Below are positions 5,661-59,515 of a stretch of DNA of 64,000 nucleotides, piece after piece; position 1 is the stretch's first letter; each line of letters opens with the position of its first letter. Location of the stretch: NCBI GenBank assembly GCA_964187785.1, contig OZ076409.1:62374001-62438000 (forward strand). Reading direction: 5' to 3'. The stretch is from Amphiscolops sp. MND2022. Lineage: Eukaryota. The translations under genes were made by a program, and so were the position numbers. Under the pieces are notes generated by a model. The model searched no databases. It was not told the DNA's origin and worked only from the letters and a program-made list of their open reading frames with translations.

Positions 5661-6289
5661 ATGAGTGTTGCTGCCTGGCTGCAACTGTTTGTCTATCAAA
5701 CCGATGTTTGTCCCTATTGTAGAGATGTCGATGATACTGCACTTTTCATATTTTCCTGTGTCTCATCCCAAGAACACTGAAGGAGTTTCATCAAGGAGCT
5801 TAAAAATAAAAAAAATTGACAAAACGCTAGTTAGTTTGCTAAATTGCGAAAACAAGCATGTTATAAGAGCGTTGGTTGGCTTTATTGCAAGCATCGATTG
5901 TTTCTTAGAACCCTGCAATCCTCACTTGCCTTCCTTCTGTGTCATTTATATTATACTATTTTCTTTGTTCTGGAATCACTGATAGAAAGTCATTTGTACT
6001 GCCACATCCCGAAGGTTAATTGATCTCTTCTTCTTCTTTGTCTAAATCGATGTAGCTCCTCGGTCCAGTCGTCTCTTGTTCGTAGTAAATTCACTGTTGA
6101 ACGGAGCGGCCTGAAGGAGTACTGCCTGTGTGATATACCGTCCGATGACAGAAACTGAAATAAGTGTTTCCAGATTATCTTCATGATCGTGTGGATAGCA
6201 GATATGGTTACACATTCCTCGTAAATTGTATTGGTTTGAAGGCATCTCAATAATCAATTTGGGAGCATGTTTTCAGAAAGATCTTGGTA

Positions 6290-7010
6290 TCACTGGTTTT
6301 GTCGATTCTATGGGAGGAAATTCCGGCAATACACAAAAAGGAAGCCGTAGTGATATTCAAAATTACAGACCGATCTCGGTTCTATCCAGGAATTCGTTGA
6401 TATTCGAAAAACTGATTTTGACTTGATTTAGAGGAAGCACCTTTACCAAATAAATTATTGCCAGCATGGTCTCCAACATGGTCAACAACGGTACTCAGCT
6501 GTTCGAATTCTTAGATTAGCTGTGTCAGAATTTTGACATCATTGAGGAGCAAACAAACGTTCACTTGGATATTATAAAAACTTTTGACTCAGTATCTCAT
6601 GCAACCTCACTTGACAAACTCTCAAGACTTGGTTTCGATGACAACCTTCGACTCGCACTCTCATATTTGCCATGTAGGACTCAAGGAGTTAGTATTGACG
6701 ACACATTATCAACTGCTGAAGTAATAAATGGAGTTCCTCAGGGCAGTGTTGTGTGTCCTCTTTTTACTTCATAAAGACAACATGCTCGTTCTCCAGGTTT
6801 CTCTCACTGCTACTGCTGCGCTGATGATGCTAAAATCTGCTCTAGTTTGATCCTGAGAAGCTCCCGTCAGATCTGAGCGCAATGTCTCCTCGGGGCTTAT
6901 GACAACCAAGCGACGTACCACAAAGACAAATGCTGCTATTTGTTTCTTCAGAAAACGAAATGTTGTCATTTAGTCTTGGACATCAAACGTTGCAGCAAGC
7001 CTCAAGGGCG
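6290..7010 (+). mobile_element. LINE RT fragment
   Basis: NYRPISVLS, DIIKTFDSVSH, GVPQGSV, ADDAK across frames. Confidence 0.8.
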
Positions 7011-7529
7011 GTCAATCTAATATTATGTTTTCTAGTATTATATCATTTAATATATATTTTCTAGTATGCTCATTTTGCGAGAGGATTGGTTACGTATAAA
7101 TAGTAAAAGAAAGTATTCATTGTTGGATACAGTTATGTTAGGCTTCAATGATGAGTGATTGAAAAACAGTTGTCAATGGATTATTTCCGAGTTAACACTC
7201 ATCATCAGCAGAACATCTTGAAATACAAAAATCAAACGAGGCTCCTGCGAAAAGAAAAAAACAGCATGATGTGAATTTATCCACATCAATACAATTTTCA
7301 AGATACGCGAAAGTTGAGGCGCTTCAGTTGGATGTTGTTCAATGATCTGATTCACGGTATCACGGATTATGAATCCATAAAAATTTCACGGATTTTGATT
7401 CGTCTCTAGCCTTTTTGCTGTCTCGGGGCCATCATGGAATGCTGTCCAGCTAGACGTAATGTGATGGATCCGATGAACCGTACCCAGAATGTTTCGTTTG
7501 TATTTCGTGAATAGTTTCAAATTTGCTAT

Positions 7530-10705: not shown

Positions 10706-10837
10706 ATGACGTCTTTCTTCCGCGGCTTACAATTTGTCCTTGAGTTCGATCCAGGAGACTCATATCAAGTCAAGTCTTCCACAAAGAAACTAATCAAAGA
10801 TCATGGAGGATGCGTATCATACTCTGTCACTAAACAC
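10706..10837 (+). CDS. PARP4: PARP4 exon 1, BRCT N-half (MTSFFRGLQFVLEFD...LIKDHGGCVSYSVTKH)
   Basis: ATG at 10706, BRCT F-x-G and GG motifs, donor gtaagt at 10838, phase 0. Confidence 0.85.
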
Positions 10838-10913
10838 GTAAGTCATTTGGTTTTCTTTTTCAAATGATTTTGAAAACGAGCTTAAACCGGTGGTTTTTTT
10901 TACAATGTTACAG

Positions 10914-11142
10914 GTTTTCGCTTTGTTATCGTCGGAGAAAGTGCTTTCAACTAACACTAGTTCCTCGTTCATCTCTAAATTACACAGCGCAGAACGACTG
11001 AATTGCCCAATCCTCTCTTTTGAATTCATCATAGCTTGTAAGAATGCTGAGCGTCTTGTGGACCCTCGTCCTTTCATTATTGCCACATCCAGTTCTAAAC
11101 TGTCTTTAACTGGGCAGAAATTCCAATCCGGGGTTATAAAAA
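10914..11142 (+). CDS. PARP4: PARP4 exon 2, BRCT C-half (..SAERLNCPILSFEFIIACKNAERLVDPRPF..)
   Basis: ttacag acceptor in frame with exon 1; resembles the BRCT C-terminal helix; donor gttggt, phase 1. Confidence 0.8.
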
Positions 11143-18100: not shown

Positions 18101-18797
18101 CTTGTAGGTGTAGCCAAAGTCAAAACATCAGAAAACAAATCTGTCATTAGAGCTATTACAAAGCTATGCAAACTACTTATCAGAAAGAACCAACCGTAAC
18201 CCCCAAGTGCTTCTCCAACGACGAATTCCTCCTCTTCTTGACCCTGCTGCTCCTGAACCCTTCTCCTCGCAACTTCAGTAGCCTGCCAGTCACCCTTCCT
18301 ATCGCGCTTCCCGTCACTCCTCTTGGCACACTTGCGAAGTCGATGCTTTCGAGGAGCTCTGGGCTTTTTTCCGGGCCTTGGAGGTTGATTGTCCTTGCTC
18401 TGCTCTATATCTCTTCGGAGATCTTCAGCCCCCTCTTGCAGCCACTCGGATTCAGCAACAGCAGGAACAAAATTCTCATTATCTTCTGAGGAAGGATTAT
18501 GTCGCGATGCCAGCAATTGCCTCAGAACCGATTCATTCGTCATCTGGAAGTATTTTGAAAAGAGTCAACGGGGGCGACATAATGGACAATCCTAATTGCT
18601 CAAAATTGAATGTCATTGATATAACTGTTATGAACAAACACATGAAAACTTAAAATTGACTTCCTGTTTGAAATGATTTCATATCTAGTTCAGATTTGTT
18701 TGAGTGATTATTCCCGCCAGTCGGTCTAATTAACTGTTTTCTCTCGAGTAAAAACGCTTCTAGCTTCTAACAGCTTCAATTCAAATAATCTGAGTTA
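12134..18797 (+). mobile_element. Decayed BEL/Pao LTR retrotransposon in PARP4 intron 4
   Basis: LTR-like direct repeats 12134-12306 and ~18600-18797; PBS-like tggtcc at 12699; gag CFHCLRKGH; YELPHHAVFK, RAVFNASAK, LNDCLLLGP; RNaseH LHIFCDAS, LELCA; integrase HCG, GIDLTG, YSDNG, GGLWES; many stops and frameshifts. Confidence 0.93.
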
Positions 18798-22323: not shown

Positions 22324-22555
22324 GCGAGAGATGAATTTGCAGTGATAGAATTGATACAACTGAACGACAAAGTCTCTCTGCCTCTACAAAGTGTCAAATA
22401 TCCAATAGTCGACATAGATACGCCTTTCATTGTCCTTAAATGGCATGCAGTGAAGACCGGAGACAGCAATGTTCTGCGTGACGTTGCCGATTCTGCTGAT
22501 AGCAACTCTAAAGATGTCGCTGATTCTGCTGTTGATGGCGTAACCTTGGCAGCAG
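22324..22555 (+). CDS. PARP4: PARP4 exon 5, WGR-like (ARDEFAVIEL..DTPFIVLKWH..)
   Basis: tttag acceptor phase 0, donor gtactt phase 1; resembles PARP4 EAVVVELQ..CPFLISSH. Confidence 0.8.
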
Positions 22556-23262
22556 GTACTTTAGATATTTTTGAAATTAACTTGAATCTCATGTAAGCAT
22601 AAGTGTGGGATTTTTCGTAGCCAATTTTCAGTCTAGAATTAGAAATTTTCGGTTAGATTCGAAATCAATTAAGCTGTGCATTTCTCTCCCGACAGTGAAT
22701 GGTTCCTAATTTTGCCTCTTATCGCTTAAGGCGCTTTTTTGTAATAAGGCTTGTAGCTCACTGGGCTCCGCTTGCAAAGTTTTTTGCATCTTCAAAATGC
22801 ATGTTTAATATCGACCAAATCGAAGGAATTGGTTCCTATGCTTCACGAATTTTGAATCAGAAAAACTATTCACGCAACTCACGGCTTATATTAGCGTTTA
22901 CGCTGTAAGTGATGATATCACTAATAATGACCCTCAAGGACAGTTTTGTAAAACTGAATCATTGAGGCTACTGAAATAAGGAAAATACAAGCGAATTGTC
23001 TAATACAGACCCGAATCATATAAATTAACCCGCATGGCAAGGGGTGTTTTTAGAATATTTGAACAATTGTATACTCTTTATAGACTATCGTTGTCCTTTT
23101 CACATAAGGCCTTTGAATTACCGAGACTTCTAAAGTTTGTGTGATTTTTCTTCACTTAATGATTACGAGGTCTTTGAATTACCGAGAGTCTTAAAGTTTG
23201 TGTGATTTTTCTACACTTAATGATTAAGGAATCTTGGGTTAATTTTTTGATCTGTTAAACAG

Positions 23263-23465
23263 GTACCAACAACACCATAGAACAGCAAGGTGCCATGGTA
23301 GAATTATTTCCATGCAAAAATGCAGTCACTGCAGTGGAGTGCTATGCGAGTGGTTTGAAAAGCTTTCCTGACAACATGCAAGATGCATTGACAACTACCG
23401 AATCAAAACAACTGCTGGAAAATATTTGTGAGGCAAACTTTCCGGGGTCGGCGAAACTAAGACAG
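23263..23465 (+). CDS. PARP4: PARP4 exon 6, end of WGR-like domain
   Basis: aaacag acceptor phase 1, in frame with ORF 23295; donor gttagg phase 0. Confidence 0.8.
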
Positions 23466-24076
23466 GTTAGGACTAAGAGTTGGAATTTTCGAAATCCTTT
23501 GTGAAAATTCGTGTATACTCAGAGAAACTATTGATTGCCGCTAATTTGAATTGTTAATAACATCGGTGAAACAATTAGCGGTGGCAAAACTTTAGTTCAG
23601 TTTCAATATGAGTTTCCAATGAGGGTTATGCATATATAAACTTTGATAGATGCGTATCGAGATAGTGTCCATGCTCAATAAACGATCAATTCTATTACAA
23701 AAATTATGTTAGGCAATCTTGTTAAGAGTTATTGAATACATGACGCCCGTACTTGAAAAAATTGTACCTTACACGGTTTATTTTGTTAATCGAGATATCG
23801 TAATGTAAACTTGATTGTACAGTCAGTCAATTTTGGTTACAGCGAATAGAATCATAAACAATGAATCACAAACATCGTAATCATTTCTTCATAAACGATA
23901 TTCGTTTCTAACGAAATTGACTGTTTAATGATGGCAAGATTTCACTGGAACGCATATTTAGATTGAATGATCACCTGACAAAGTAATGTTTTTTGTTGAT
24001 TTCGATCGACATATTTCCTTTTCCATCAATCTATCGAGGTGAAAATTGTAAAATGCGACGATTTTTTCTTTTGCAG

Positions 24077-24454
24077 GCGATTCTATTGGATTTGAACTCT
24101 CGAAGTCTTGATCTAGATCCAAGAACAGTGGAGCTCTTACAGACTCTCTACTCAGAAGCGAGAAGTTCTCTGGAAGAACTGAAAAACTTTTCAATTCAAT
24201 CGTGCGATCGCGATACCATCGAAGAGGCTATGGGGTATCTTCTGGAAATCAAACGCTTGAAACAGTTTCTCCTGAAGACCGACCAAAAAGACCCCGAAGC
24301 GAACCAGATATCGAAAACCGAAATGAGGTCCATAATTGACGCCCATTTAAGGTGCAGCGACTTCACTAGGAGGTACCTCGAATGTTTACCTCAAAAGCAG
24401 AATGTAGATGAGTTGTCGTTGCAAGAAGTTGCTCAGAAACTCGATATGTGCCAA
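24077..24454 (+). CDS. PARP4: PARP4 exon 7, helical (regulatory) domain
   Basis: ttgcag acceptor; ends VAQKLDMCQ (PARP4 LAKKADLCQ); donor gttagt. Confidence 0.88.
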
Positions 24455-24751
24455 GTTAGTTCTGTTCGTTTTCATTGTTTCTAACCAAATTAGTGTTTCA
24501 AAAATCGGCTTGAATATATCCCGTGTATACCGTATTTGATCGGAAGATATCCGTGGCTCCCATTTTTTGTCTTGCATTAGGACAAGCTATGAAACTTCAG
24601 GGGGTGTTTTAATTTTGGATGAAAAGCGTAACTCATTTGAGGGTGGCTGCTTAGTCGGCGCTTTTTGTAACTGACCATAATAGTTGCAGTCCTCCACGAG
24701 GGCGACCATCAATGTGACAAAAGGAATCAGGAAAATACGCACCTATCGAAA

Positions 24752-26626: not shown

Positions 26627-26904
26627 GTTATCAAAGATATGGTCTCTTTGGGAGAAAAAACCAGCTGGAGTCCTAAGCCTGCCGTGAGATCAATGTACGA
26701 GGCTCTAAATTCTCTAATAGTGCCAGTGGATGTCGGAAGCGTTGATCTAGGGGTTCTGGACGCGAAAGGACTAGACGGTGAAATAACTGGCGTGTTTCAA
26801 GTTGCTAGACCCAGTGAATTGTCGGAGTTCAGAGCACACATCGGACATGTTGAAAGGCTACTGCATGGAACTAATACTTCTAGTGTCATTGGAATTTTGT
26901 CAAG
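26627..26904 (+). CDS. PARP4: PARP4 exon 8, ART domain N-part with catalytic His (LLHGT..GILSR)
   Basis: ctgtag acceptor, VIKDMV start, HG motif, donor gtgaga phase 2. Confidence 0.93.
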
Positions 26905-27039
26905 GTGAGACTTTGTATAATGTTATTCTAAATTCAATTGAGAAAACAAAATGCCTTAACCTTCGACTTTTCGATGATACTCACATAAAATGATCATTCA
27001 TATAATTTCATTAGCAATTGCTACTTTGTTGTGTTTCAG

Positions 27040-27491
27040 GGGTCTACTGTTACCGGACGTTGTGACCAATGAGTTCGGAATAAAGCTCACTGACTATGGC
27101 AAGTTAGGCGCTGGTATTTATTTCGGCACCAAAACCCAAACTAGCTTGAAGTACACCTCCAGCTCAAACTGCGGTTTTCGATACCTGCTCGTCTGTGACG
27201 TAGCGTGTGGACGAAAGTTGACTGTCACTGAAGAAAAACCGGACTTGATTAAAGCTCCCGATGGTTATGATAGTGTTCTGTTTACTGGAGGGAACAAAGA
27301 TGGTTCTAACACTCATGACGAGGAAATGGTTGTCTATGACCCGAGTCAAGTCAGCATCAAGTATCTAGTCGAATTGAAACTTAAAGCTGATTCTGTTAAA
27401 CCTTCAACTACGAAAATGCAAAACTTTCTGACTGAGGATAACGATGGAACAGAAAATGAAGACAAATGCGAATCTCAAGCCGAGGATTTAA
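27040..27491 (+). CDS. PARP4: PARP4 exon 9, ART catalytic core (GLLLP..GAGIYF..SLKY..CDVACG..GYDSV..DEEMVVY)
   Basis: PARP catalytic motifs with Tyr and Glu of the H-Y-E triad; donor gtaagt. Confidence 0.96.
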
Positions 27492-27743
27492 GTAAGTTTT
27501 AGTTTTCCAAAATCATAATTGTTTTGATATTGCTCAACTGTTGATATGCGTTCGCGAAAACTTTTCACATCTCGGATTCATAGTTCTGAGTGTTAAGAGA
27601 GGTTTCCGTCATTTTCTGAGACATCACTTTGTCAATATTTTGATTTAGGTGAATTATTTTTCGTTATTGAAATTTTGTTAAGGTTAGTAACAACATGCAT
27701 GGGTTCTTTTTAAAGTTACTATGAATATCAATGTTCATTCTAG

Positions 27744-27917
27744 AATTGGACCAGCTGTCGTCTCTGACGCCGCCCGTAAGCGAAGCAGGTCTTGTGCCTC
27801 AGAGCGGATCCCGGGACTCTATCCCACTACAGGCAGTTCATGTCCGCGCAAAGATGGTTGACCTGGCAGCAAATGTGGTAGTGATGCAGATATACAAGAA
27901 TAACAATTCATCAACAG
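27744..27917 (+). CDS. PARP4: PARP4 exon 10, VIT N-part (IPLQAVHVRAKMVDLAANVVVMQIYKN)
   Basis: VIT domain start; phases 1/1 fit both neighbours. Confidence 0.92.
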
Positions 27918-28203
27918 GTTGCTGATAAAATGGAAACTTTATCTCTGGAAATTTGGCCTGAAAAAACGTAGCTCGTTCCACGTGATACATTTCTGATAAG
28001 AACAGTAGCTTCCCACTAGTGAAAACTTCATTTGTGCTCTGAAATAACTTTTCAACTTGAGTTGTCATTATTCAATTATCAAAGCTCCTAATCGGTTTGA
28101 TTATTATTTGCAGGAAATCTCATCAGTGAACTGTATTGGTCAGAAATAAAAAGTTATGTATAAAATGCTTGCTCATTCGAAATCTATCTTACTTTTTGAA
28201 CAG

Positions 28204-28499
28204 GACGTCAAGGCGGAAACATCGAGGCGAAATACGTTTTCCCATTGGACGAGTTTTGCACAGTTGTCGGATTCGAAGCCTACATAAACGGCAAGCACAT
28301 TGTTGGAACAGTAAAGGAAAAAATGGCTGCTCGAAAGGAGTACAAGAAGGCAATCGAAGAAGGGCACGGTGCCTATCTGATGGAAGAGGAAAAGGAAACA
28401 CCCAATGTGTTCTCAGTAGCGGTTGGCAATCTACCTCCTCAAGCGATTGTGTTGGTGAAAATAACCTACGTAACCGAACTTCAGGTACAGGGTTCGAAG
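28204..28499 (+). CDS. PARP4: PARP4 exon 11, VIT (IEAKYVFPLD..GFEAYINGKHIVG..VGNLPP)
   Basis: Strong VIT signature; donor gtcagt chosen by alignment to PARP4. Confidence 0.95.
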
Positions 28500-28920
28500 G
28501 TCAGTTGAAGGGTGGATTGCGAAATTGTTTCCAGTTTTAAAAATGCCGTTTCCTATGTCTTTGCAAATTTAATGATTCTCAATTTTTGTTTTATGGGTTC
28601 CAGCTTTGTTACCAGCGAGTCCATATAAAGTGAAAATAGTTCCATGTTTTGTGGGCTACCATTTGCCTTCCTGTATACAGACTTGTAGGGAGCCGTAAAT
28701 CATGAGTGGCTATCATGGCTATTGCCATCCCTTTTGGCATATTTGATATTTTAGCCTTTTGTTCTGGGTATTTTGTATAGTTTTAATTACAATTACCAAT
28801 TGGGTTGAGATTAAAATGTATTTTTGATTTTCTCTATACAAGACAATGGAAGAATCGACTTAATAATATTCTGCTTTAGTCATACTTGGAAAAATTGAAT
28901 CAATTGGACTTTTTGCTTAG

Positions 28921-29133
28921 GTCAAGTTTTCGTTACCTTCTGCTGTTGCACCTTGGAATGCGAAGTCTTTTGAAGACACGAAGTTGCAAACAGAGTTGGA
29001 AACCATTCTTGTGAACCCTGGGGGAACAGATGGTGAATTGGGGAAAGAAAAGTTCACGTTCGAGCTTACAGCAGACATGGGATCAGCTATTAAGCAACTC
29101 AGCTCACGAACTCATCCTCAACTAAAAATTAAG
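28921..29133 (+). CDS. PARP4: PARP4 exon 12 (VKFSLPSAVAPW..SSRTHPQLKIK)
   Basis: cttag acceptor, VAPW motif, donor gtttgt. Confidence 0.9.
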
Positions 29134-29357
29134 GTTTGTCATTGTTTCATTTTATTTTTACTGGGAGTTATTTCGGAACATGTTATGGTGTTTTTTGTTG
29201 GGTATAGTAGCTTGAATTAGAAATCAAACCAAAGAGCTAGTTCAAGATTTTAAAAGGAAAATAGAAATTTTTTTGCGCTTCTCGTCTAATGCAAAATTTT
29301 GTTTTTTCTATTTCTGCGTGGCGATTAGAGCTTTTAGTCATATTTTTTTTTCTTCAG

Positions 29358-30269
29358 CGCACAGAAACGCAAGCAGTATGTGCGCTCCCTAATGGAGCCT
29401 CAGAAAACGATCAAGGTCTTGGGAATGACGGCTTCGAACTGCTCATTGAGTTAGAAGAAGCGAACAAGCCTAGAATGTGGGTTGAACGCTTGCCTGATAA
29501 CCCGGACGACGAAGCTGTTATGCTCTCTTTCTATCCTCAATTTGAAATGAGCCAATCAGAATCCTCTGTTCACGTAACCAGTCAGATCATACTTCTCATC
29601 GACCTCTCAAACTCTATGAAACACGACAAAGGCTTTTTTACAGCAATTCAATTAGCATGTCTTACAATTATGAATTTGGAGGAACACCAACTTTTCAATG
29701 TGATACTCTTTGGCACTAATTATCGCGAAATTTTTGATGCTTCTATCAAAGCCAACGAAAATTCGAGGAAAAAAGCGATCGATTTAATGACTAAAGTTGC
29801 CACACACTTTGAAGCTCTAGGTGGAACCGAATTGGGAAAGCCCATTGCAATGTTAGCAACATTGTTTCAAACAAAAGACGATCTGAACCCGATGTTGCGA
29901 TCGAAAAGCGGAAGTAGCATGAAAACTACTTTGATGTTGTTCAGTGACGGACATTTACCACAAAGCGTTCAAAGCTCCATACTGAAAGTTCTCAGCAAAT
30001 CAGAAGACAATAATCAGTTCCGACTGTTCACAAACGGAGTTTCAAGCTCCTGTGACAAGCACACTATGAGGCTAATTGCTAACAGAGGTTGTGGTTTCTT
30101 TGAGTTTTTCGACCCATCCCACAAATCTTCGTGGGCGGAAAAAGTCAAGCGCCAGCTCAAAAAGTGCTTCCAACTTGCGTTGAGCAAAGTTGCAGTTCAG
30201 TGGGTGCGGCATGATGAAGATGATGACCGCCCAACTTTCGATGTCCTTGATGGATCTGGAATGATTCAG
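29358..30269 (+). CDS. PARP4: PARP4 exon 13, vWA domain
   Basis: PRMWVE, MIDAS DLSNS, FNVILFG, GGTEL, FSDG, RLFT motifs. Confidence 0.95.
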
Positions 30270-30547
30270 GTCTGTAATTGGGAATTGAGTTTTATGGAAA
30301 CTCCCAAATTTGGTCTCACGAAATTTTAATAGCATTCACACTCAACGTTTTGTTAGGCATTACAGTTACAAAGTACGACAAATTTTGTAGATGAACGGCG
30401 TTGTTTCGGGTGCATTGGAAAAATAGGCACTAAACTTGATACTGTAGTCTACAGTCTGTAGATATTTGTGTACGATCATTCAGCTAGCGAATATTATGCA
30501 TGCGAAATTATGAACTTTTGTTGGATGAATTTGTCTGTTCATTTTAG

Positions 30548-30698
30548 GCACCTGCAAACTTGTCAGTGTTGTTTGATGGCGAACGAGTTGTTGTGTACGG
30601 GCTGGTGAGACATTGCAGACAAGCCATTCTCAAGGCACAGTTGAATGGCCAAGAAGTTTCAACTGTAGTCTCCTGTCCCGATCTTCAAGTGACTGATG
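30548..30698 (+). CDS. PARP4: PARP4 exon 14 (APANLSVLFDGERVVVYG..)
   Basis: Q|AP junction typical of VIT-vWA proteins; donor gtaaga phase 1. Confidence 0.92.
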
Positions 30699-30884
30699 GT
30701 AAGATTTATGATTTTGTTTGGGAAGCACTAAGTTTCATCAGTTTTTAGTGGGCCAAGTGTTACCCCGCTCAAACCACTTGTGAAATGTTCAACGTAGCTG
30801 TCTTTAATTTGTAAGGCAAGAGATTTCTCGCTGTTATTCAAGTTTCGGCCCTCACGATGCTAAGGTGTAAACCATTTCCAGATC

Positions 30885-32660
30885 AATTTCATTATTATGA
30901 AAAAAACATTTTCATATAAATGCAAATCGAAACATTTTCATATGAGTGCATTCCAATTTCATTGTTGCGCGAAACATTTTCATTTGGACGAAATTCATTT
31001 TCAGTGTTCTGAATTCGTTTTCATTTGCTAAGTAGTATAAAACATTCAGCGCAGATAATTTGTATTATATCATGGAAAGAAAAGAATGAACATGTATACA
31101 TTAAAAGTTACAATTATAACTTCAAACCATTAATCTATTCTGTGCGGTTTTCTCACAAGATTCCAGGATAATATCGTTCAACATGCGCAGCATATGATGC
31201 AAAATGAAACGGCAGACTTTGTTGAATAGATTCTTTCGCAACTGTTTCTATTTTTGCATACGATATTCACCGATTGTCATTATGGCGTTGGTAAGATTGA
31301 ATTGAAATATGCTGGACATCTGATCACGTAATATCATTTCCACTGAAGCCTTGAATCTACTCCAAAAGAGCTCGATGAGAGTAATGAGATACAAGTAAGG
31401 TGCGAGGCGTGTGGTTTAGACCAAGAATGGTTTCTACATTCGAGTGAGCTGGGGCATTATCATTGATGATTGTTGGCTCCTCGATTCCCTCGTCTGTGCA
31501 TGTTTATCAACTCCCTTATCCATGCTCCCTCATTCATGCAACTTTCAGAATCGAACGAACCTTTTTAGCAATGCAAATTGTGTCCTTTCGAAGCAGTTTG
31601 TATCACGGTCGCTCTACATCCGATCTTCGATCTGCCTTCCTTTCGACAGTATAAGTTGAAGTTTGTTTCATTTACCGACACCAGTTTCCTTTCAATTGCC
31701 CGATCTCTCAGTATTTTCTTGTATCGCACTGCTTATTGTTGTTTCCATTCATTGTTCCTGGATGGGGTCGCACATTCTAGACAGAAATAAGTTTTCTCGC
31801 CAATTTCTGACATTATTTACATAGATATTCAGGAAATATACTTGCATGATTCTCTCGCAATTGCTTTAGTGTCAGTTGTTGGTCGTTTTTGAGCCATTCA
31901 ACCAAATCCAGAACAATTCGTTCTTTTTTTGACAACAATTGCACCACAATCAAGTGGTTCCCCCATTTCTTATCCAAGTGATAGCATTGCCTCTTTAATT
32001 CTTCTACGCTTTTGCAGTCATTTTTGTCGTTAAAAGCCTTGATGGTGGCGTCTTTATTGGCCTGAGATTACTGGGGATATTTGTCTCGTTTAATTGATGC
32101 CCTCTCGTAAATTCCTCTTAGCATTTTAAAAGATAGAAAATACTAGACACAATGAAATTGAACGAATAATGGTAGCAATTGTTCCGATTTTGCCAGAACT
32201 GCTATTTTCTAATTTCAAAATTGCAATTGTTGACAGTTTTTTAAAGTTTCATAATTGAACATTTTGGTAATTTTAATCAATTTCATTTTTTGTAAGCTTC
32301 AGTGAGATTATTTGGAATTTTGAATGTTCAAGTTTGCAATTTGAAGTAATTTTACAATTTTATTTTTGTGTCAATTTATCGACAATTTCTGATTCACTGG
32401 GTGAGAATTGTATGCTGAATGTGTAATTTGAAACTGTAGTTGAAAATGTAATTCGGTTGAACAAAAACGTTTTGCATGGAAATGAAATTGTTCATTCAGA
32501 TGAAACGGATGTTCATCGATATGAATATCTTTTTCATGAGTTCGATAAAAATTCTTACATGAATGATATTGGATTTCAACCATATGAAATTATTTTCAAA
32601 TAAAATGAAAATGATTGCTCGATTTAATGAAATAGAATTAGGAATTGAATAGAAAGATGT
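30885..32660 (-). mobile_element. Decayed Tc1/IS630-like DNA transposon with long imperfect TIRs
   Basis: Minus-strand fragments NETNFNLYCRKEGRSKIG, SKGHNLHC, DNAPAHS, LAPY at ~31150-32130; inverted catttt/aaaatg-rich ends. Bounds approximate. Confidence 0.75.
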
Positions 32661-33043
32661 TTATAGACACAAAAAACTTAGATATTCTGAACGTCTCAGT
32701 CAATATGGACTGTCTCTTAGCCTTTTTTCCTATATGGTTACAAAAAGTAGCCCTCATTGAATTAAAAAGACTCGCTAATCGGTATTTTTAAGGTGGAGGG
32801 ACTGAAGAGCCGAGTAGGCTCATCCCCTGTCAAAATTAAAGTTTATATTGAAACAAATGCCATTTTCTTGTTTTTACAACATTCATTTAAATAAACGTTG
32901 CTTTCCTGGTCAATGAATAGCCAGGGTTTTCTCAGTGGATCAACAAGGCTGTTTTTCTGAAGTAAACGTTGAAACCGCCGTTGTATGATTTGGTTATAAT
33001 TAATGCCTGATCGAAAAGTCTTGATGAATGCTTGTTTTGTTAG

Positions 33044-33234
33044 GCAAAATGGTGCACCAACTAGCTGCGAGGGCTATCATCCGGGACTGGGAGACAAATG
33101 CAATCCTGCACACTGACAAGTCCACTAACGAAGTCGTCAAAAAGCAGCTCAAACATACCATCATCCAACTCAGCAAACGTCATCAAGTGATCACGCCTTT
33201 TACCAGTTTTTTGGCTGTTGAAAAGCGAGAAAAG
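33044..33234 (+). CDS. PARP4: PARP4 exon 15, ITIH-like (MVHQLAARAIIRDWE..VITPFTSFLAVEKREK)
   Basis: Conserved PARP4/VWA5 motif; phases 1/0. Confidence 0.94.
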
Positions 33235-33475
33235 GTTGGTAGAAAAAGTCTCCTAGGGCCATCATATAGGAAAATTAATTGTGTAATTGCAGGAACTGCC
33301 AATAGTATTAGGAAGTTACCGAAAGTAATGACATAATAGTTTCTCACGGTTACTTTAATTTCGGGATTTATCGGTAGATTGGCATCATCATTCAATTAGG
33401 TGTAAAATATGCTGTTATAGAACAACGCCGTTTTTATTCATTATATTTCCTCCTCTTTCACTGATGAACCTTTAG

Positions 33476-33580
33476 AATGAAAAAACCAGCATGGATATGA
33501 AGTTCATTCAAGAAGTGGTTGCTAAAGAGGGAGTGGATTCTTTGGAGTATATTGGCTGGGAGAATGAAGTGATAATCAAG
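33476..33580 (+). CDS. PARP4: PARP4 exon 16 (..EVVAKEGVDSLEYIGWE..)
   Basis: Resembles PARP4 ELIAKEDVDFLPYMSW; tttag acceptor, gttagc donor, phase 0. Confidence 0.88.
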
Positions 33581-38412: not shown

Positions 38413-41100
38413 TCCGAAATTACATCTAATTATTTATACAATACTATACAATAGTAATATATGTGCATTCTTGAATGGAACTAGAGGCAAATGTCCGCTT
38501 AATTGGGACCTCAACAATACGAACAAGGGTGATAAAGGAGTGACAGTAACTTTTCTCTTGTGATTTAGGAGTTTACCTACTTGGGAGCTATTTGTTTAGA
38601 ATAAACATCTTGTGCAAAAACATTAACTTTTGTTTACCAGAGACAAGTCAAGGGTTTCCTGGTTGCCCAGAACATACTTTTGAAAAGAGTTCATGACAAA
38701 CATTTACCATTTTTCACATCGAAACTATGGAAAGATGCATTATCGTAAGACACCCATCGATAAAAGTTTTTATTCTCGAATACATGATGAATCACGTACC
38801 CTTGATTGCAATTACATGTAGTTCGAGTTTCTGTTTCAGACACCATACGAGCTCTTTATCGAGAAATACGAGTCATTCGAGAAAGAAAAGACTTATTCAT
38901 TGTTGACTGCAGCCGAATCAATAACCGAAGCGGCAAATATGTTGCAACAACATTCCAACAAACTCTTGCCTATCGAGAAATTGATCGAGGTTTGTCAACA
39001 TATTGTTCTCACCATTTCCAAATGAAGTTGTTTAACTTGATTGACAAATTCTACAGCAAACAATGATTTGAAAAGGATATCAAGTCAACAATGAAATACT
39101 CGACAACGGATAGATTTAGTGCTTTATGAAATTATGAAACGATGTAAGGAATGCGAAACATAGTGTTTAGAAAACCATGTCATAGCCAAACATGCTTTCT
39201 CATTATCACTCGTGTTATGCAATTTGTACGCTCTTTTTAGAATTCAAACTACGAACATACTCAAGTATTATATTAATTATTGTGCAAAATTTTTGTCGAA
39301 TTCCTCTTGTGTTCCAAAAAGTTCGCGACTTGAAATTTTTATGCTAATAGCTCAGGCAATTCAACGAATCGGGCAAACTGTGTTTAGTTGGTAATACAAC
39401 TGGTAATGTTCAATTCATTAGACAAGGTTACTAAAATCGTGTCATTTTTCTAATTCCAGTAAAAATAGGTTCGAGCAGAAATTCATCAGTAAATTCGAAA
39501 ATCGGTCATAAAACATGCAAAAAGATAACATCTTATTTTTCGCCGAGTTTACTTGCTAATAGATTGAGTTTGACATGCAATATTTTCTACTTTTAGTTTG
39601 GTGCAGATTCGATAGACGTACTTTCGTCTCTGGACAGAACAGATCAAGTTGAAATGATCGGAGACCAAGTTTTACAGGCGATGAATCAGCTCGAAGATTC
39701 CACCTTGAAAGGAATTTCTGAAGAGCATCTGAAACATGCTTCATTCATCTATAACACTGTGAAAACGTTAGTGCTCGCATATTTGGAGGTTTTAGCATCA
39801 ATTGGTAAAATTTTTAAATACAAGTAGCTATACATACTGATTATATAAACGTTTACAAGAATTCTTTCAAACGTCTCCTTCAAGGGTGCAGTTTGCCATA
39901 TACCTCTTGTGGAAGGATAATTAGTGGACGAATTAAATAGCGCTATTTCATCTTTTATAGTGGAATTAGTTTTAAACAAGATAAGGCTTGTAAAATTCAA
40001 TGACATCTACAGCAAATTTGCCTACATGGTGAATTAATGATTGCAAGTTCGATATCTAATGACTAAAATCATATAACCGGAAGTTGAAGATTTGCAAAAC
40101 GACAGTCCAAAGTCAGAACCAATCAGATTAAAAAAAAGAATTCTTTCAATACAAAAAAAAATAAACAAATCTGACATATCGGCTTGCGAGTTTACATATC
40201 AAATTCACGGATTGCTTTATAAAGAGATAAAATTGAGCGGTTGTTATCACAGCCAGAGCATACAGATCTTCTCTTTTCGAAATATTTTTTCCATTGTACC
40301 GTATTAACTCGACAGTTTTCCATCCAATTCATAAGCTCAGTCGTTACGTCAGCTTCTGCAAGAATTCGTTCAATTTCAGATTTCTAAATTGCAGAAACTC
40401 ATTGTTACGTTTTTTAAACGAATCGACTCACTTTCTGCCAATAACTAACAGATGCTGGTGGAAAGCTATCGCTAAAACTTGGTTGGAAAGTACTTATCAC
40501 TTGACCTAGAAGTTAACGCGGGTTTCTTTGCCTGGTCATGAAGTCTGGGGAGCAAAAGTACGTTGTTTCGAATTCCGCTCTCGACCCAAAAATGACAAAC
40601 ATACATATTATTTTCATTGGTATTAGCAGCACCCGCATTGCAGATAATACTGCATAAAACAGAAACGTTATTTAATTGGTCTTATGAAAAGGTTATTTAT
40701 TTATGCTTTCCAAGGTAGTTGGGAAACCAAAGTTTTTTTGCACTGCGAGACTTTTTGAACTTTGTATGTTTCACCAAAAAGTCACCTTTTAATTATTTTA
40801 TCTCTTCAGCAAGTAAAAAGCGTTTTGCGAGACAAGAGGGTCGCTTTTTTAGTTTTTCGGCAATGTGCGACTTTCCGATTTGAAAATTTGGCAAAATCCG
40901 GGTTTTTAAAAGATATATTTTCAGTCAAGGTCTTCCACCCATTAATTTTTTTCGGAATTGTTTATCACTGATTAGTTCCCCAGCGTGTGTGTTCAAAACA
41001 AACCAGTGTCGAGCTTCTGTATCTTCAGTTTGAACTCTTAATACTCATTCTGAACAAGACGGCCGCTAAGCACCAGGTAATTTTCCGCTAAAATGTAACG

Positions 41101-42128: not shown

Positions 42129-42344
42129 ATTCTACTTCAGTGTCTGTTTAGATTGAAGAATGCCAAATTGAGCGATGGTGAGAAGGCAGAAGATGCTTAT
42201 AAAGACAAATTGGATAAGTATTTAGTGCCAGAGATAGAACGGAATGTGGAGCTGAAAGTGATTCAACTGACTGGCAAACAGACTCACTTTGTGTTTAAAC
42301 GTTATCAAAGTGTGGCTGAAGTCAAGGACACCATCTACGAAGAA
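42129..42344 (+). CDS. Exon: linker plus ubiquitin-like domain N-half (VELKVIQLTGKQ..VAEVKDTIYEE)
   Basis: LTGK and VK motifs of the ubiquitin fold; phase-0 acceptor at 42129 (alternative 42141); donor gttagt. Confidence 0.82.
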
Positions 42345-43181
42345 GTTAGTTTGGCTCTTTTGTTACACCCCCCCCCCCCCCCTCCTCCACCATCAAAATT
42401 TTTTGGGAAAATTAGTGGAAATCTTATAACAAATAGACTTGAATACAAACAGAAAGCTTCAGTTTTAAATTTATTCTCAGGGTGATAGTTTAGGATTGAA
42501 AGTTTAGATACAAACTTTGTTCACACTTTTTCCCTATGTAGTTACGCATTTTTGGTGAAGAAATCAACAGCTTCCTGTTTTGAGTCATCAATAAACACAC
42601 TCAATACGAGAATAATTATAGTCAAAATGCGTGAACAATGTTTTGTTCGAGCGGAAAAACTACTCCAATACAAGTTAACTTCCTGTTATGAAAGAAGGTT
42701 TACTTTTAATTAGGCTAGTCTAAAGTTTTTAAGGAAAGTTTTTCAGAAAATCGTATGTGAGAAACTGTAAAATTAGAAAGTAGCAAGCAATGTGCTTTTA
42801 ATTTTGTTTAGCAAGGTAAAATAAGGAGCATTTTTATCCTTTTGTTGGACAGGGTGTAGATGCAGTTGCTGTAGAAGTTGGGCGCCATTATGAATTCGTA
42901 GGGGTACTTTTTAGCTTTCTTTCGGTAATAGGATTTGTCAAGAATGTAAGCTTATGAACTTTACTTTTGAGTCTTTGCTTGAGTCAACCTTAGGCGGTGA
43001 TTGTTGAAAAACCAATGATTGAGTCAGTCTTGTCAATGAAAAGTCGTAATGCGAAGTAGTAGTAGTAGTGAGCCATTGATTTCTCCATTACATGATTAGT
43101 TTTTTATAAAATTTTCATTATCTCTGCGATAGCAGGAATATTATTGAAACCTCAAGATGCCAACTTTTTTATAATAAATCT

Positions 43182-43592
43182 GAGGGCATAAGTCGGCGCC
43201 CGTCTTAAGGCTGAAAAAGCAAAAATACTTCGAAGCGTCAAGGATTCTCTTTTTATTATTTCTGCGATAGCAGGAATATTATTGAAATCTCAATTTGTCT
43301 ACTTTTTTTTCAGTGTAATTCTTCGCACGATATTGAAAATATCAGATATTTTGTTCGGCAGTGACTATAAGCGTGAGAATTAATTTTCTCAAGCTGCCGA
43401 CAACAATTCAATTCTTATGCGATGGAACGAGCGAGTGATAATTATGCATTCGTACGCTGACGTCATTGAGATGAAACGAGGGAATGTTCGTAATTATGCT
43501 TTCGTACGCCGAGTTATTGAGATGAAGCGAACGAGTGTTAATTATTCTTTCACAGAGAGCTTCGCCTGCATTCAAATGCGAATGCGAAACTT
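43182..43592. repeat. Dispersed repeat, highly similar to 63490-63897
   Basis: agggcataagtcggcgcccgtcttaagg ... gcttcgcctgcattcaaatgcgaatgcgaaact in both copies. Confidence 0.85.
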
Positions 43593-44429
43593 TAAAGCAG
43601 AAATAGCAAAAAGCAAAAACTTTGAAAGATTAAAGCAGAAATAATAGTGTGCCCCGGGCCTATTTGTTATTGTGGTACCCTATTTTAAAAAGGATGTTTT
43701 TCTATAGGATCTCATGTAGGGCTTTTTGCAAAATCCTACGTCCTTTCACCACTGCTTTTAAAAAGCCCTCATTCAAATAGATCTAGCATATCTGAGAAAG
43801 AATTATGCGTCGATCTTACATTGTTCTATCGCTAGAATTTGGAGCATGTGAATGTCGGATAAAACTTACGGACCATGTCATCTATTTCCCCCCAAAACTG
43901 CGGCGGGGGGTAATAAGACAGAAGGTTCAAATACCATTATGTCGACATCATTTGCGTTGAAATTTTGGTCCAATAAAATAATTGATGTTAACATAATCCT
44001 ATCCATTACATTAACTCAGTTACAAGCTTCTCATTAGATTTTATAGCGGTCAAAATTTGCGTTGAAATAGGGGGCTTTTTAAATACATTTTTAGCTTGTT
44101 TCAAACGTAACTTTCTGCTATTTTGGACAGTAATATCAAAAATTATTGTAATTTTTTTGCCTGAAGTGTTCAAACAGTTGTAGAAACAATCCTCTAAGTA
44201 TTTACATTCATATAATATTCTCTTATTAGTGAAATATTTTTATTCAAGAACAAAATGTGTTTTCGTGTTTGGGGGATATTCACAACAAGGTATACCTGGG
44301 GGGGGGGGTAGATGACATGGATCAAACTTACGCGACCTTGTTTAATAACGTTATGAAAATGTCATTGCATTTTTTGTTAATCGGTGGTTGCACATACGAA
44401 AAGCAAAAGCCAAAGTTTCGTTTTTGCAG

Positions 44430-44592
44430 GAAGGAATTCCGCCAAATCAACAGAGGATTGTTTTCAAAGGAAGACAACTACAAGATGAACAAATCCTGAA
44501 TGACCTGGACGTGCAGAATGGCGACACTTTTCACATGGTGATGAGACTCAGAGGTGGATATATTGACCCTACAGCTATTCCAGACAAAAGTG
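44430..44592 (+). CDS. Exon: ubiquitin-like domain C-half (EGIPPNQQRIVFKGRQLQD..HMVMRLRGG-YIDP..)
   Basis: Clear ubiquitin similarity; ttgcag acceptor phase 0; frame continues past GG to donor gtaaga phase 1. Confidence 0.92.
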
Positions 44593-45018: not shown

Positions 45019-45159
45019 AATTGGGCCGTACAGTAATGGTAGACGCTGGCTCGTACACTGTGAAAGCTGGACTTGTGTCTGAGGGTGGATCAACTGTGGA
45101 TGCCATGTGCAGTGATATAGTGGAAGTCAGAAATGTCGTTGGCCGGCCCAGACATCAAG
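45019..45159 (+). CDS. Exon: actin N-terminal-like segment ([22 protein letters not shown])
   Basis: Matches actin phosphate-1 loop DxGSxxxKAG and VGRPRHQ; attcag acceptor, gtaaga donor, phase 1/1. Absent from the ORF track. Confidence 0.9.
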
Positions 45160-46450: not shown

Positions 46451-47010
46451 TCGTATCATCATCGTCGTATCCATCATCAATGTAGAGGTCCACATAGCAC
46501 TGTTTGCCACCTCTCCGCCAGTCTGACAGCTTCATCTGTTACTCTCATCAGATCTCCGGTATGCAATCCACTTGCTTTGACTATGTGTGACGTCGTCTGA
46601 ACTTGTCCGCATTGACATAACTCGTCTTCGCTTACACCCCATTTTTTGAGGTTGTATTTTGATCTTCCATTGAGCGCTCTCAATCTATTGAGGCATTTCC
46701 ACGTGCTCCACTTCAGGTTTCCACCAGGTGGCAGTTCCTCACGACGGCCAGTAGGTTGGTTCTTTGAACGCTCTCTCATTTTCCAGAAACGCTGCTTGTA
46801 CTGTTCTGCTGTCATATCGGGGACGCATGTTTTGTGTAGGAACCTGTACCTCGATTTCAGCCGCCTCTCTGCTGGTTCTCGTCCGTACAGCGGGTGTCTG
46901 GAGTCAGTCTCTTGTTACTTTTCTCCTGTACTAGACAGCTCTTCCGGCGAATCATTGGCGGGGCTATTCCTGCTAGATTGTACACTGTATCTATTGGGGT
47001 GTTTTCTGTG
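46451..47010 (-). mobile_element. 3' fragment of an Ingi/Vingi-like LINE
   Basis: WKCLNRLR..GR..LKKWG..CQCGQVQTTSHIV C-terminal zinc-finger motif; gatacga-repeat tail. Confidence 0.72.
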
Positions 47011-48890: not shown

Positions 48891-49025
48891 GCGTGATGGT
48901 TGGCATGGGACAGAAAGATAGCTATGTTGGAGCGGAAATCGACCCTGCATTTCGTTTGACAAAGCTTGCAAAAGTTGAAACAAAACTCCGGAGCGAAGCA
49001 ACAGACTCAGCTGATTCAAACTCAA
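48891..49025 (+). CDS. Exon: actin D-loop ([14 protein letters not shown]) then non-actin sequence
   Basis: Exact actin D-loop sequence directly after a ttgcag acceptor; donor gttagt; phase 1/1. Confidence 0.9.
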
Positions 49026-50605: not shown

Positions 50606-51845
50606 TTAATTTCGCAAAACGTTTTTCAAGCCAGAACTTTTCTGAAAAGTGAAGCGGTGCCATTTCACCGACAGAACTGTTCTCTGAAAATTGCCGAACA
50701 TCTTTTGCACAAGAACACAGAATGATGAAAGCTCATGTTTTTTGTCAGCTTTGCTAAAGGAACTCTTCGAGAACCCTGTCAATGCTCAACAAGCGGGATC
50801 TCTACAAGTCAACAATCCTTCCTAGTGTTCTTTATGCCAGCTGATTTCGAATCCCGTCAAAATCTGACCAGAGAACTTAAATGAATTGGTGAGATGGATT
50901 GTACCCCAGAAGTCTTATTGGCACGCCTTATGCTACTTGAACGTTCTCCGGATTCCTGACTTTCAAGTCCATAAAGATCTACTTACCTTATCCAGTATCC
51001 TGATCGGAAATATAAATTGAGATCAATCCTTCAGACGAGAGGCCTTTCATCTTACCCAGTGTTAGATACGAGTTGCAACTTTCATTTAACTGGTATCGTA
51101 CCTGTCATTTTGCGAATTTGATATGGAATAAAGTGTTTCTGGCAACCAGGACTAAAAGCAAGAATTCTGAATCTAATGTGGATTTTCATCAATAAAACTT
51201 TTAACGACATCTCAACCTGCACCTGGACTTTCATTTGTCCATGTAACTTTTGTCGATTTAGAAATCCTATCTCTGAACTCAAGACGGTGGCATTTTGGGA
51301 GAAATTCCTTCGCTTATGCATAAATCCTTGATAATAATAATTTATATTATCATTGAGAAAACTCTAATCAGTCCTACAGGACTACAAAATAATCAGAGTA
51401 CCCTTAAAACTGGGAAACCGGTTTTGCTAAATCGGAAACTTCTCGAAAAACGAAAATATCAGGAAACGATACTTCGAAAATTGGTGCAATAAAATAAAGA
51501 GGACCCTTCTGTTTTGAAATGCTTTTGTTTTTCATGTTAAAGGCTTTGGATGCGTTCAAACTCACATATTAAGTGCATATCGTGAAAGTGCACAGTGTAC
51601 AAAAAATGGACCTTACAGAGTGAGACTAGTCACTGTAATTGTCGGGCTCTTTTTCTTAAGTTGAAAGCGCCTACTGAAAGTTACATAGCAATAATGAAGC
51701 ATTAAAAATACTTCCACAGACTCGAAATATGCCGACCAGAACAAAATGCTGGAGCCTTTTTTCTCGAATTCCATGCTTGAATCAAATAGACATGTACATC
51801 GCCTCTTAAAACGAAGTCGTCTGTTTAGTTTGATCAGGAAATTAT

Positions 51846-52721: not shown

Positions 52722-52898
52722 AGCTAATGTTATCTGATGCAGCTTCTTCGCCATCCCGTGTACAAGCGTTTCCCCACCCCGGAGCTGTCATGGCACCCCC
52801 TCCTTTGCTTGGAGCTTGTATGACACTCCCTCCACCACCTGCACCTGTCATGGCACCTCCTCCACCACCTGCAATTGTCATGGCCCGTCGTGCACCAG
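52722..52898 (+). CDS. Putative polyproline exon, copy A (duplicated; may be alternative or non-functional)
   Basis: ttttgaag acceptor, APVMAPPPPP repeats, weak donor gttaca at the duplication junction; phase 1/1. Confidence 0.55.
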
Positions 52899-53165
52899 GT
52901 TACATAGCAACAATGAAGCATAGAAAATACTACTACAATAGACTTGAAATAGACCGACCAGAGCAAAATGAAATGCTGGGGCGTTTTTTTTTCTTGACTC
53001 ATTCCTACATTCTTGAATTAAATAGACGTGTACATTGCCTTTTAAAACAGAGTCGTCTGTTCAATCAGTAGTAATTTTGATCAGGAAATAGTATTTTTCT
53101 CTTCAGACATGATTTTGTTCATGTCTTCCTCTTTCTGTGCCTTTAACATGTTTTCCTTTTTGAAG

Positions 53166-53570
53166 AGCCCATGTCATCGCGTAGAGCTTTCTCGCCACCT
53201 CGTCTACGAGCTTCTTGCCACCCCGGAACTGGCATGGAACCTCCACCACCTGCACCGGTGATGGCACCTCCTCCCCCACCTGCACCTGTCATGGCCCCTC
53301 CTCCGCCACCTGCTGCTGGGAGGGTACCCCCTAGAACTGACATGGCACCCCCTCCACTGCTTGGAGCTTGTATGCCACCCCCTCCACCACCTGGAACTGG
53401 CATGGCGCCCCCTTCACCACCTGCAGCTAGCATGATGTATTCTAGTTTTTCTGTACACTCGAAGCAAGTTGAAGCAGCGTCGCAACCACCACGGCTATTG
53501 GCAAGCGCCGAAAGCTACGATGAAATTGCTTGTCTTGATTCACTCTTGCAGTCAGCCACAGTTGAAAACG
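53166..53570 (+). CDS. Polyproline exon, copy B (MAPPPPPAP repeats)
   Basis: ttttgaag acceptor, open frame, donor gttagc; phase 1/1. Confidence 0.8.
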
Positions 53571-56472: not shown

Positions 56473-58110
56473 GAGTCGAATTGAACAGTTTACCGGGCAA
56501 CCTCACAGAAAGTGAAGAGGATCTCCCAATAGTTTCTCCCAAAAAACTGCCCGTTTCAATTGCTTGTTCTGACGATGATATATTTAACGAACCTCTAACG
56601 AACCAAATTTTTGGTAAAAAACAACCACGTGGAACCGCCAGTGGCTCAGTTGATGGGCAACCGCTTAGCAACATTCAATTTGGATCGTCATCGGCTCAAC
56701 CAACCAGTGGGGGTTTGTTTGGATCAGCCTCCGCACAACCGGTTACTGCGCAACTGGCTAGAAGCAATCTTTTTGGGTCTTCATCGACCCAACCAGCCAT
56801 TGGGGGATTGTTTGGATCAGCTGCGCAACCGGCTAAAAGCAATCTTTTTGGGTCTTCATCGACCCAACCAGCCAGTGGGGGTTTGTTTGGATCAGCCTCC
56901 GCGCAACCGGTTACTGCGCAACTGGCTAGAAGCAATCTTTTTGGATCTTCATCGACCCAACCAGCCATTGGGGGATTGTTTGGATCAGCTGCGCAACCGG
57001 TTAGCAGTAGTCTCTTCGGATCGTCGTCAGGCCAACCGGCCAGTGGGGGTTTGTTTGAATCAGCCTCCGCGCAACCGGCTAGAAGCAATCTTTTTGGGTC
57101 TTCATCGACCCAACCAGCCAGTGGGGGTTTATTTGGATCAGCTGCCGCGTAACCGGCTAGCAAAAGTCTCTTTGGATCGCCATCGGCCCAACCGGCCAGT
57201 GGGGGTTTATTTGGATCAGCTGCTCCGCAGCCGGCTAGCAAAAGTCTCATCGGATCGTCATCGGCCCAACCGGCCAGTGGGGGTTTATTTGGATCAGCTG
57301 CTGCGCAGCCGGCTAGCAAAAGTCTCTTCGGATCGTCATCGGCTCAACCGGGCAGTGAGGGTTTATTTGGATCAGCTGCTGCGCAACCGGCCAGCAGTAG
57401 TCTCTTCGGATCGTCACCGGCTCAATCGGGCAGTGGGGGTTTATTTGGATCAGCTGCTGCGCAACCGGCTAGCAGTAGTCTTTTTGGATCTTCATTGGCT
57501 CAACCGGCCAGTCGAGGTATGTTTGGATCAGCTGCTGTGCAACCGGCTAGTAAAAGTATCTTCGAATCGTCATCGGCTCAACCGGCCAGTGGCGGTTTGT
57601 TTGGGTCAACTGTTGTGAAACTGGCTAGCGAAAGTCGCTTTGGAACATCAGCTATGCCGCCGGCCAGTAACAGTACATTTGCGGCCGAATCTCATGATAG
57701 TACTTTTGGATCATTTTCGGCTTCATCAACTGGTTCTGGTTTCGCATTTGGATTTGGTTCCTGTGGTGAAGAAAGATTAGCTTCGAATAAAATTTCCAAA
57801 TCTGGTCGAATGAGAAAATCTAAAATGAGTTCTTCGGAATGTTTTCGTGAGCTTGCGATTGGCTCAACTGACGACGTCAATCCCTGGTCAGGATCAACTT
57901 TATTTGGTGGCCCTTTGCGGAGTGGCTCTGTTTTACATAAAATGTCTTTGGAAAGTGCAGAACGTTCACGTGTAAAAAGTATGATGTCTCCTGATTCGTG
58001 TGAACTTGGACAAAAAAAGCCGGAAATGAAAATAGTTTCTGCAGAAAACTGGACTGCCGTATCTGACAATGCTGCTACGCTGAACCGTGAAATGGTTGAC
58101 GAAACCGAAC
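56473..58110 (+). CDS. FG-repeat exon (GGLFGS/SLFGS, nucleoporin-like) with in-frame TAA at 57150-57152
   Basis: ORFs 56445-57152 and 57495-58115 share one frame; 1638 nt, phase 1/1; ttttgaag acceptor, gttagt donor. Confidence 0.78.
56680..57610 (+). repeat. Coding minisatellite, alternating ~36-nt units (QPASGGLFGSAAA / QPASKSLFGSSS)
   Basis: Tandem caaccggc..gggggtttatttggatcagc units directly visible. Confidence 0.95.
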
Positions 58111-59243: not shown

Positions 59244-59515
59244 AAGCTGTCTCAGAACAATTGGATGCCGAATTGACTTCATTAACTCCAACAGAAGCTT
59301 ATGGGGGATTTCATCTTGTCGAGGGAGACTTTTCCAAGCATTTGGAAGCAATGTCTTCAGAACTGGATAGACAATCAAAGCAGCTATCGAGCATTTCGAG
59401 GCACACTTCAAGTATTGGAGGAGGCATTGAGGAGAGTCTGAACAATATTTATGACCCGTCAATAGAAGATACTGTTGATGAAGCAATGGACGAGAGCGAT
59501 AGTGAATGCGAAGAG
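59244..59515 (+). CDS. Acidic exon (..DPSIEDTVDEAMDESDSECEE)
   Basis: ttacag acceptor phase 1 fits the preceding exon; donor gttggt. Confidence 0.72.

Follow-up and report, generated by a model that had tools for sequence, protein, structure and literature searches.

The PARP4 gene of the acoel Amphiscolops sp. MND2022, as read in a window of 64,000 nucleotides of its genome (contig OZ076409.1), encodes within itself a copy of ubiquitin, and the larger finding beyond this ubiquitin-like domain (UBL) is the mosaic linker in which it lies. Judged from the sequences compared here, the UBL may well be bait, one among several scraps of host proteins that would lure microbial enzymes in the PARP4 linker, and we hold the case for this reading to be about as strong as the case against it.

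The domains BRCT, ART, VIT and vWA occur in this order, all on the same strand upstream of the UBL, which identifies the gene as a PARP4 or vault PARP, and a quick tree, in which ENA128 and Macrostomum have long branches, groups the window protein with PARP4 orthologues as sister to that of Convolutriloba macropyga (RefSeq model P0281, SH-aLRT 100). Searching the genome with the VIT exon returned one locus (1 match among 4 candidates); MVP is also present, with PF01505 matches over the cut-off on contig C11. Splicing and the link between the UBL and PARP4 were deduced from splice signals, the joined frame and homology to P0281, which extends from exon to exon through the end of the vWA, the helical linker, the UBL and the actin fragment and by which the UBL appears to lie in frame within a single PARP4 gene. 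Six donor/acceptor combinations into the first UBL exon were tried, with an in-frame and stop-free reading required, and only 39766->42152 gave one, so that the exon begins at 42152 and not at 42129, where the earlier note had started it. The use of acceptor 42129 or 42141, or of donor 39804, shifts the frame, and these sites were discarded. The joined frame is stop-free from 33046 through the UBL and contains, from 33046 to 59515, 1246 modelled codons with a single stop, at 57150. The features are as follows.

10715–11141 (edges approximate), + strand: BRCT domain, two exon pieces (PARP4 N-terminus profile, E 4e-14 and 2e-8; tblastn with P0281).
22330–24457 (edges approximate), + strand: WGR-region and helical (HD) exons (weak tblastn matches at 22330–22440 and 23244–23366; 24092–24457 against P0281, E 1e-15).
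26627–27499, + strand: ART (PARP catalytic) domain, two exons (PF00644, E 2e-11; alignments), with the motifs LLHGT, GIYF and DEEMVVY, to which we presume the H-Y-E triad can be assigned.
27746–33580, + strand: ITIH-like region, VIT and vWA exons (PF08487, E 3e-27; PF13768, E 2e-9; tblastn), at 27746–27913, 28221–28502, 28921–29133, 29355–30269, 30548–30703, 33044–33234 and 33476–33580.
38840–38989, + strand: helical linker exon 1 (P0281 homology), where other PARP4s have the C-terminal half of 14-3-3.
39597–39766, + strand: helical linker exon 2 (aligns to P0281; sole donor whose splicing to the UBL exon leaves the frame open).
42152–42344, + strand: linker end and UBL residues 1–33, the latter at 42246–42344 (P0281 homology, junction test, joined frame, ubiquitin alignment).
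44430–44592, + strand: UBL residues 34–76 (to 44558) with RLRGG, then Tyr and a short spacer (PF00240, PDB match).
45019–45159, + strand: actin N-terminal fragment, part 1 (PF00022, E 0.083; P0281 homology; frame).
48891–49025, + strand: actin fragment, part 2, the D-loop end, then a low-complexity spacer (comparison with own actins).
52722–53570, + strand: two proline-rich exons, 52722–52898 and 53166–53570 (gt/ag, frame; weak P0281 homology).
56473–58110, + strand: FG/GLFG nucleoporin-like repeat exon (PF13634, E 2e-22 and 2e-24).
59244–59515, + strand: acidic exon (frame).

The G75 codon contains, at 44554, a weak alternative donor whose phase would allow a join to the next exon and whose use would delete GG; the strong donor at 44593 appears the more likely of the two. 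The sequence trailing the first proline-rich exon occurs a third time at about 51640–51835, apparently within an intron, which suggests that the proline-rich exons were duplicated locally. The intron after the BRCT exons holds broken LTR-retrotransposon-like frames at about 12600–18200, which we take to be a zinc knuckle, reverse transcriptase, RNase H and integrase-like, and fragments at about 4470–10090 and 46480–46914, on both strands, are presumably LINE-like reverse transcriptase and endonuclease.

Over all 76 residues the UBL aligns without gaps to the genome's own ubiquitin, with 32/76 positions identical; a phase-0 gt/ag intron parts residues 1–33 from residues 34–76, RLRGG occupies 44544–44558 and the following Tyr 44559–44561. 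The second exon alone matches Pfam PF00240 (E 6.3e-15, 55 bits against a cut-off of 25.4), a sequence match to the ubiquitin fold, and aligns gap-free to residues 34–76 of ubiquitin in the PDB. These comparisons bear out the earlier claim of a full-length UBL in two exons, ungapped to ubiquitin, and its list of residues was correct throughout: L8, H68, V70, R72, R74, G75 and G76 are kept, V stands at 44, and K48 and K63 are replaced by R and N. K11 and K27 are retained as well. Since 20 of the 32 identical residues use other codons than the genome's own ubiquitin, their identity reflects selection rather than recent copying. Diverged tandem ubiquitin-like arrays with intact LRGG junctions (L005, L006 and L007) are found elsewhere in the genome, on contig C11.

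Orthologues show how widely the domain is distributed and which part of it is kept. A search scored on VIT–vWA only found the UBL in 28 of 87 non-vertebrate PARP4 hits, the actin D-loop in 35 and both together in 5, and neither piece among the 33 vertebrate hits; in a search of 50% clusters the UBL was present in 11/150 hits, only 81 of which reach at least 150 residues beyond the anchor motif. The UBL is carried by, among others, molluscs, a sponge, a ctenophore, diplonemids, Acanthamoeba and the acoel Convolutriloba. After removal of near-duplicates at 80% identity, which reduced the set from 49 to 36, and with a truncated UBL (P0254) and the first unit of two tandem pairs left out of the count, 29/36 PARP4 UBLs end in GG, as against 32/314 background units (identity 0.54 versus 0.58), these being polyubiquitins that had crowded an orthologue search, drawn from only 51 unrelated proteins, mostly tandem arrays, and thus no neutral model; with one background unit per protein, GG ends 18% on average and 31% at most. 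The seven other PARP4 UBLs have lost G76 or the whole tail (GS, GA, GP or none). Relative to the same background, L8, T9, R42, G47, Q49, H68, V70 and L71–G76 are enriched (p<1e-3), K48 and K63 are not, and K29 and F4 are depleted. As far as these alignments go, the UBL keeps the face read by ubiquitin-handling enzymes and the remainder drifts; that face is the one read by host deubiquitinases (DUBs), E1, ubiquitin-binding domains and proteasome receptors. The earlier note had staked its proposal on GG being conserved in orthologues, which it is, together with a selectively kept enzyme-facing surface.

The residue after GG is Pro in 18 of the 29 GG-ending copies, Gly in 6, Leu in 2, and His, Arg and Tyr in one each (Pro in 15/24 within the VIT–vWA-scored set), and Pro follows GG in none of the 26 GG-ending background units at 30–70% identity. 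GG-Pro is found on diplonemid, ctenophore-like, sponge and acoel branches and on both mollusc paralogue branches; the closest orthologue, Convolutriloba, has GG-PP, where Pro may be no more than the beginning of a duplicated actin piece; in P0281, GG is immediately followed by a decayed copy of the actin fragment (at about 1512–1604), with the intact one after it. Tandem pairs of UBLs, the first tail-less and the second ending in GG-Pro, occur in the ctenophore protein P0261 and in P0085, a related PARP4. Four or more branches have acquired another residue than Pro after GG (Tyr, Leu, His, Gly), and heterobranch snails have retained GG-Gly; with 11/29 copies of this kind, cleavability would seem to be tolerated. 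Three of the 11 (P0012, P0262 and P0128) end no more than 11 residues past GG, which may be intron read-through. From this distribution we infer that GG-Pro is the ancestral state and that Tyr is probably a derived exception, and because Pro is usual and Tyr derived, routine host cleavage is unlikely as the conserved purpose of the UBL, while cleavage may occur in this species.

The bond between ubiquitin and proline is described as inefficiently cut by most DUBs (PMC4522658), with one USP on record that cleaves it. The earlier note had read GG-Tyr as a sign of cleavage as in ubiquitin precursors; this species does carry GG-Tyr, a residue other than Pro as such fusions require, but the junction is not conserved, Pro taking its place in most copies, the closest orthologue included, and seven of the 36 tails being altered in ways that would block cleavage. 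We therefore weighed a wider form of the idea, a host-deubiquitinase processing site like those of SDE2 and the ubiquitin precursors, with GG-Pro cut slowly or by few USPs, GG-Tyr cut fast, and the catalytic half thereby parted from the vault anchor. Selective retention of the tail and of the enzyme-facing surface would suit it, as would the several branches with GG and no Pro, the recorded USP and the precedent of a cross-reactive USP that can cut diverged GG UBLs, SDE2 being cut by USP5 (PMC13572447). Against this, the UBL is missing from 59/87 non-vertebrate and all 33 vertebrate hits, because of which it is not a required maturation step, and the actin and other pieces are left unexplained; taken with the prolines and altered tails, these points make conserved processing rather unlikely. 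SDE2 and the ubiquitin precursors likewise encode a ubiquitin fold with a GG end and a downstream extension, but their UBLs are N-terminal and obligatorily cut, whereas that of PARP4 is internal, lies some 1,400 residues into the protein, is present in some species only and in most cases has Pro after it (PMC13572447; PMC4522658).

For this species taken by itself, analogy with SDE2 and USP5 inclines us slightly towards some host USP cutting GG-Tyr. That the freed fragment would then be conjugated is quite improbable. In the UBL, R72 and R74 are kept, K48 and K63 are lost, and GG is internal. The nearest precedent is avian OASL, an enzyme with a tandem UBL and an intact LRLRGG tail, for which self-conjugation is reported and which has been studied with viral deubiquitinases (PMC8764230); its tail is a free C-terminus, whereas that of PARP4 would need a prior cut.

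The earlier account was right about the importance of the tail and overlooked what surrounds it, namely the actin fragment, the proline-rich and FG-like repeats and the mosaic linker as a whole. Directly after the UBL, two exons encode roughly residues 5–57 of actin, in which a D-loop stretch of 23 residues matches two of the genome's own actins at 21/23 positions, of which 13 and 15, respectively, are encoded by a different synonymous codon; at the level of codons, the fragment bears the mark of purifying selection. Two further actin paralogues in the genome (L016 and L021) have D-loops with two substitutions, and the PARP4 piece matches the conventional actins. Recent retrocopying or gene conversion from the ubiquitin or actin genes was considered and is excluded by codon divergence.

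The UBL–actin order recurs in Convolutriloba PARP4. Among 19 orthologues chosen for extra Pfam labels, the linkers hold pieces of other kinds: the C-half of 14-3-3, synaptobrevin, HSP70, EF-hand, Snf7, PDZ, WH2, BRK, Roc and P-protein, with 14-3-3, P-protein and ubiquitin pieces all present in Acanthamoeba P0270. A motif scan of 230 family proteins with the anchor motif, a redundant set, counted the actin D-loop in 44, a P-stalk tail in 25, FG repeats in 18, Pol II heptads in 15 and a histone H3 tail in 2. The H3-tail look-alikes occur in two bivalve PARP4 paralogues (P0037 and P0225), of which P0037 also carries Pol II heptads and an RS-rich stretch. These linker pieces are truncated (actin about 1–57, the C-half of 14-3-3, the SNARE motif alone) and vary among lineages and paralogues. 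In the present gene, the first 39 residues of the helical linker matched the wider PARP4 linker profile at 78% in HHalign (reversed control, 0.2–0.3%) and clear 14-3-3 seeds at 1%, with an E value of about 5 in an iterated profile, and neither motif scan nor profiles detected a P-stalk tail in the modelled window tail or the downstream frames.

Well downstream of the UBL, the FG-like repeat exon contains an in-frame TAA at 57150–57152, where neighbouring repeat units have CAA or CAG, and the frame reopens beyond it for 320 codons. No second copy of the stop-bearing stretch was found in the assembly, in which it is single-copy, and the stop may be a real nonsense allele or an assembly error. 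It precedes a last exon, about 16 kb past the window, that matches the MVP-interacting profile (L012, about 7765–7836, E 4.7e-5); a second MVP-interacting-like C-terminal exon beyond the window matches it at E 0.34 (L011, about 6920–6964). The allele may thus be truncated, with the vault-binding end perhaps already split off.

To account for the linker as a whole, we tentatively propose, at somewhat less than even confidence, that PARP4 outside the vertebrates serves animals and protists as an integrated-decoy sensor, with a linker made up of a series of lineage-specific mimics of host proteins that are targets of microbial toxins, proteases and deubiquitinases (proline-locked ubiquitin, the actin D-loop, a 14-3-3 half, a SNARE motif, the P-stalk tail, the Pol II CTD and FG repeats), whose engagement would trigger ADP-ribosylation or release from the vault. 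GG-Pro would make the bait a poor substrate for host deubiquitinases without spoiling the fit of the tail in an enzyme's active site. Microbial enzymes that target ubiquitin or actin would settle on the linker beside the ART domain and become ADP-ribosylated, or would cut the linker and so detach the catalytic half from the vault anchor. Because Pro became Tyr in this species, host USP enzymes may now be able to cut here too. The pieces are, as in integrated decoys, host-protein parts fused into another protein and varying by lineage; no NB-ARC, NACHT or LRR, and hence no NLR scaffold, was found among the Pfam matches, in 27 window frames or in 19 orthologues. We know of no pathogen enzymes that strike these linker pieces. 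A bacterial protease is reported to cut the Gly42–Val43 bond of actin (PMC7311988), and the P-stalk is described as bound by RIP toxins. Plant NLR integrated decoys such as RRS1-WRKY similarly carry a piece of an effector target in a larger protein, with integrated domains that vary by lineage, but there the scaffold is an NLR, whereas in PARP4 it is an ADP-ribosyltransferase with a vault anchor that carries its pieces in series and is known here from sequence alone (PMC4627273).

The same pieces might instead be handles for host partners with no immune role, the UBL binding proteasome receptors, DUBs or ubiquitin-binding proteins and the actin piece cytoskeletal proteins, to position PARP4 or vault cargo. 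A conserved face fits such a module and bait alike, and the pattern does not separate the two because host DUBs, E1 and proteasome receptors read the same face; strong conservation is expected under host-partner binding too, and the kept L8/I44/V70 face and pieces that are conserved and not fast-evolving agree with it. Yet GG is strongly enriched here and shuttle-type UBLs, which work without GG, do not need it, and truncated pieces that differ by lineage and paralogue fit a fixed housekeeping job poorly. We regard host handles as unlikely, while noting that appended domains of this kind have been taken as links to ubiquitination and the cytoskeleton (PMC4245714). That the pieces are neutral relics of abundant mRNAs captured in a tolerant linker, or that the gene is decaying in this species, is very improbable, and the relic reading is unlikely for the PARP4 family as a whole: the donors are all highly expressed genes, the frame has its one stop at 57150 and the introns contain retroelement remnants, but protein identity persists though codons are largely replaced, conservation is face-specific, the UBL–actin order is shared with Convolutriloba and both pieces co-occur in several hits, and the stop is the only one among the modelled codons. 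Capture bias towards highly expressed genes could explain which pieces appear, not their retention.

Databases automatically label a UBL in many mollusc PARP4s, and ubiquitin, actin and 14-3-3 in protist PARP4 have been known since 2014, when Perina et al. described 14-3-3, actin and ubiquitin-related domains in clade 5 PARPs of amoebae, unicellular animal relatives, lancelet and sea urchin and, in the text available, read them as links to signalling, the cytoskeleton and ubiquitination (PMC4245714). Clade 5 comprises the vault PARPs, so the family and the appended domains are the same as ours; section 3.1.2 of that paper places the ubiquitin-related domain in Acanthamoeba and actin in unicellular relatives and does not discuss animal UBLs, GG or GG-Pro, the mosaic or a decoy. 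The portions of Citarelli et al. (2010) available to us show no such appended domain for clade 5 (PMC2964712). In the literature searched, to which subscription journals mostly did not belong, we found no published report of an animal PARP4 UBL, a GG-Pro tail or a decoy interpretation, and the accessible part of a 2026 vault preprint contains none either. Vertebrate PARP4 has, at the same site between the ITIH-like region and the MVP-interacting domain, an exon-30 linker proposed as a host–pathogen interface, which differs in being disordered, positively selected and, in 33 hits, devoid of a UBL or actin piece (PMC4038475, PMC10450202). Positive selection on it is reported in PMC4038475, and PMC10450202 suggests it as a site of viral cleavage or modification.

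Recent papers continue to describe the function of the vault and of PARP4 as unknown. Conserved mimics of host proteins at the linker position that is positively selected in primates and bats provide a concrete, testable model, and the alternation of GG-Pro with GG-Tyr, GG-Gly and GG-Leu is a natural experiment in which the acoel pair, this gene and that of Convolutriloba, differs at the very residue expected to decide cutting by host DUBs. If the site is cut here, the product would be a 1,400-residue ADP-ribosyltransferase ending in a ubiquitin tail, unusual in itself. If the decoy-sensor reading is true, the vault would gain a testable immune function and PARP4 linkers would become a catalogue of effector targets.
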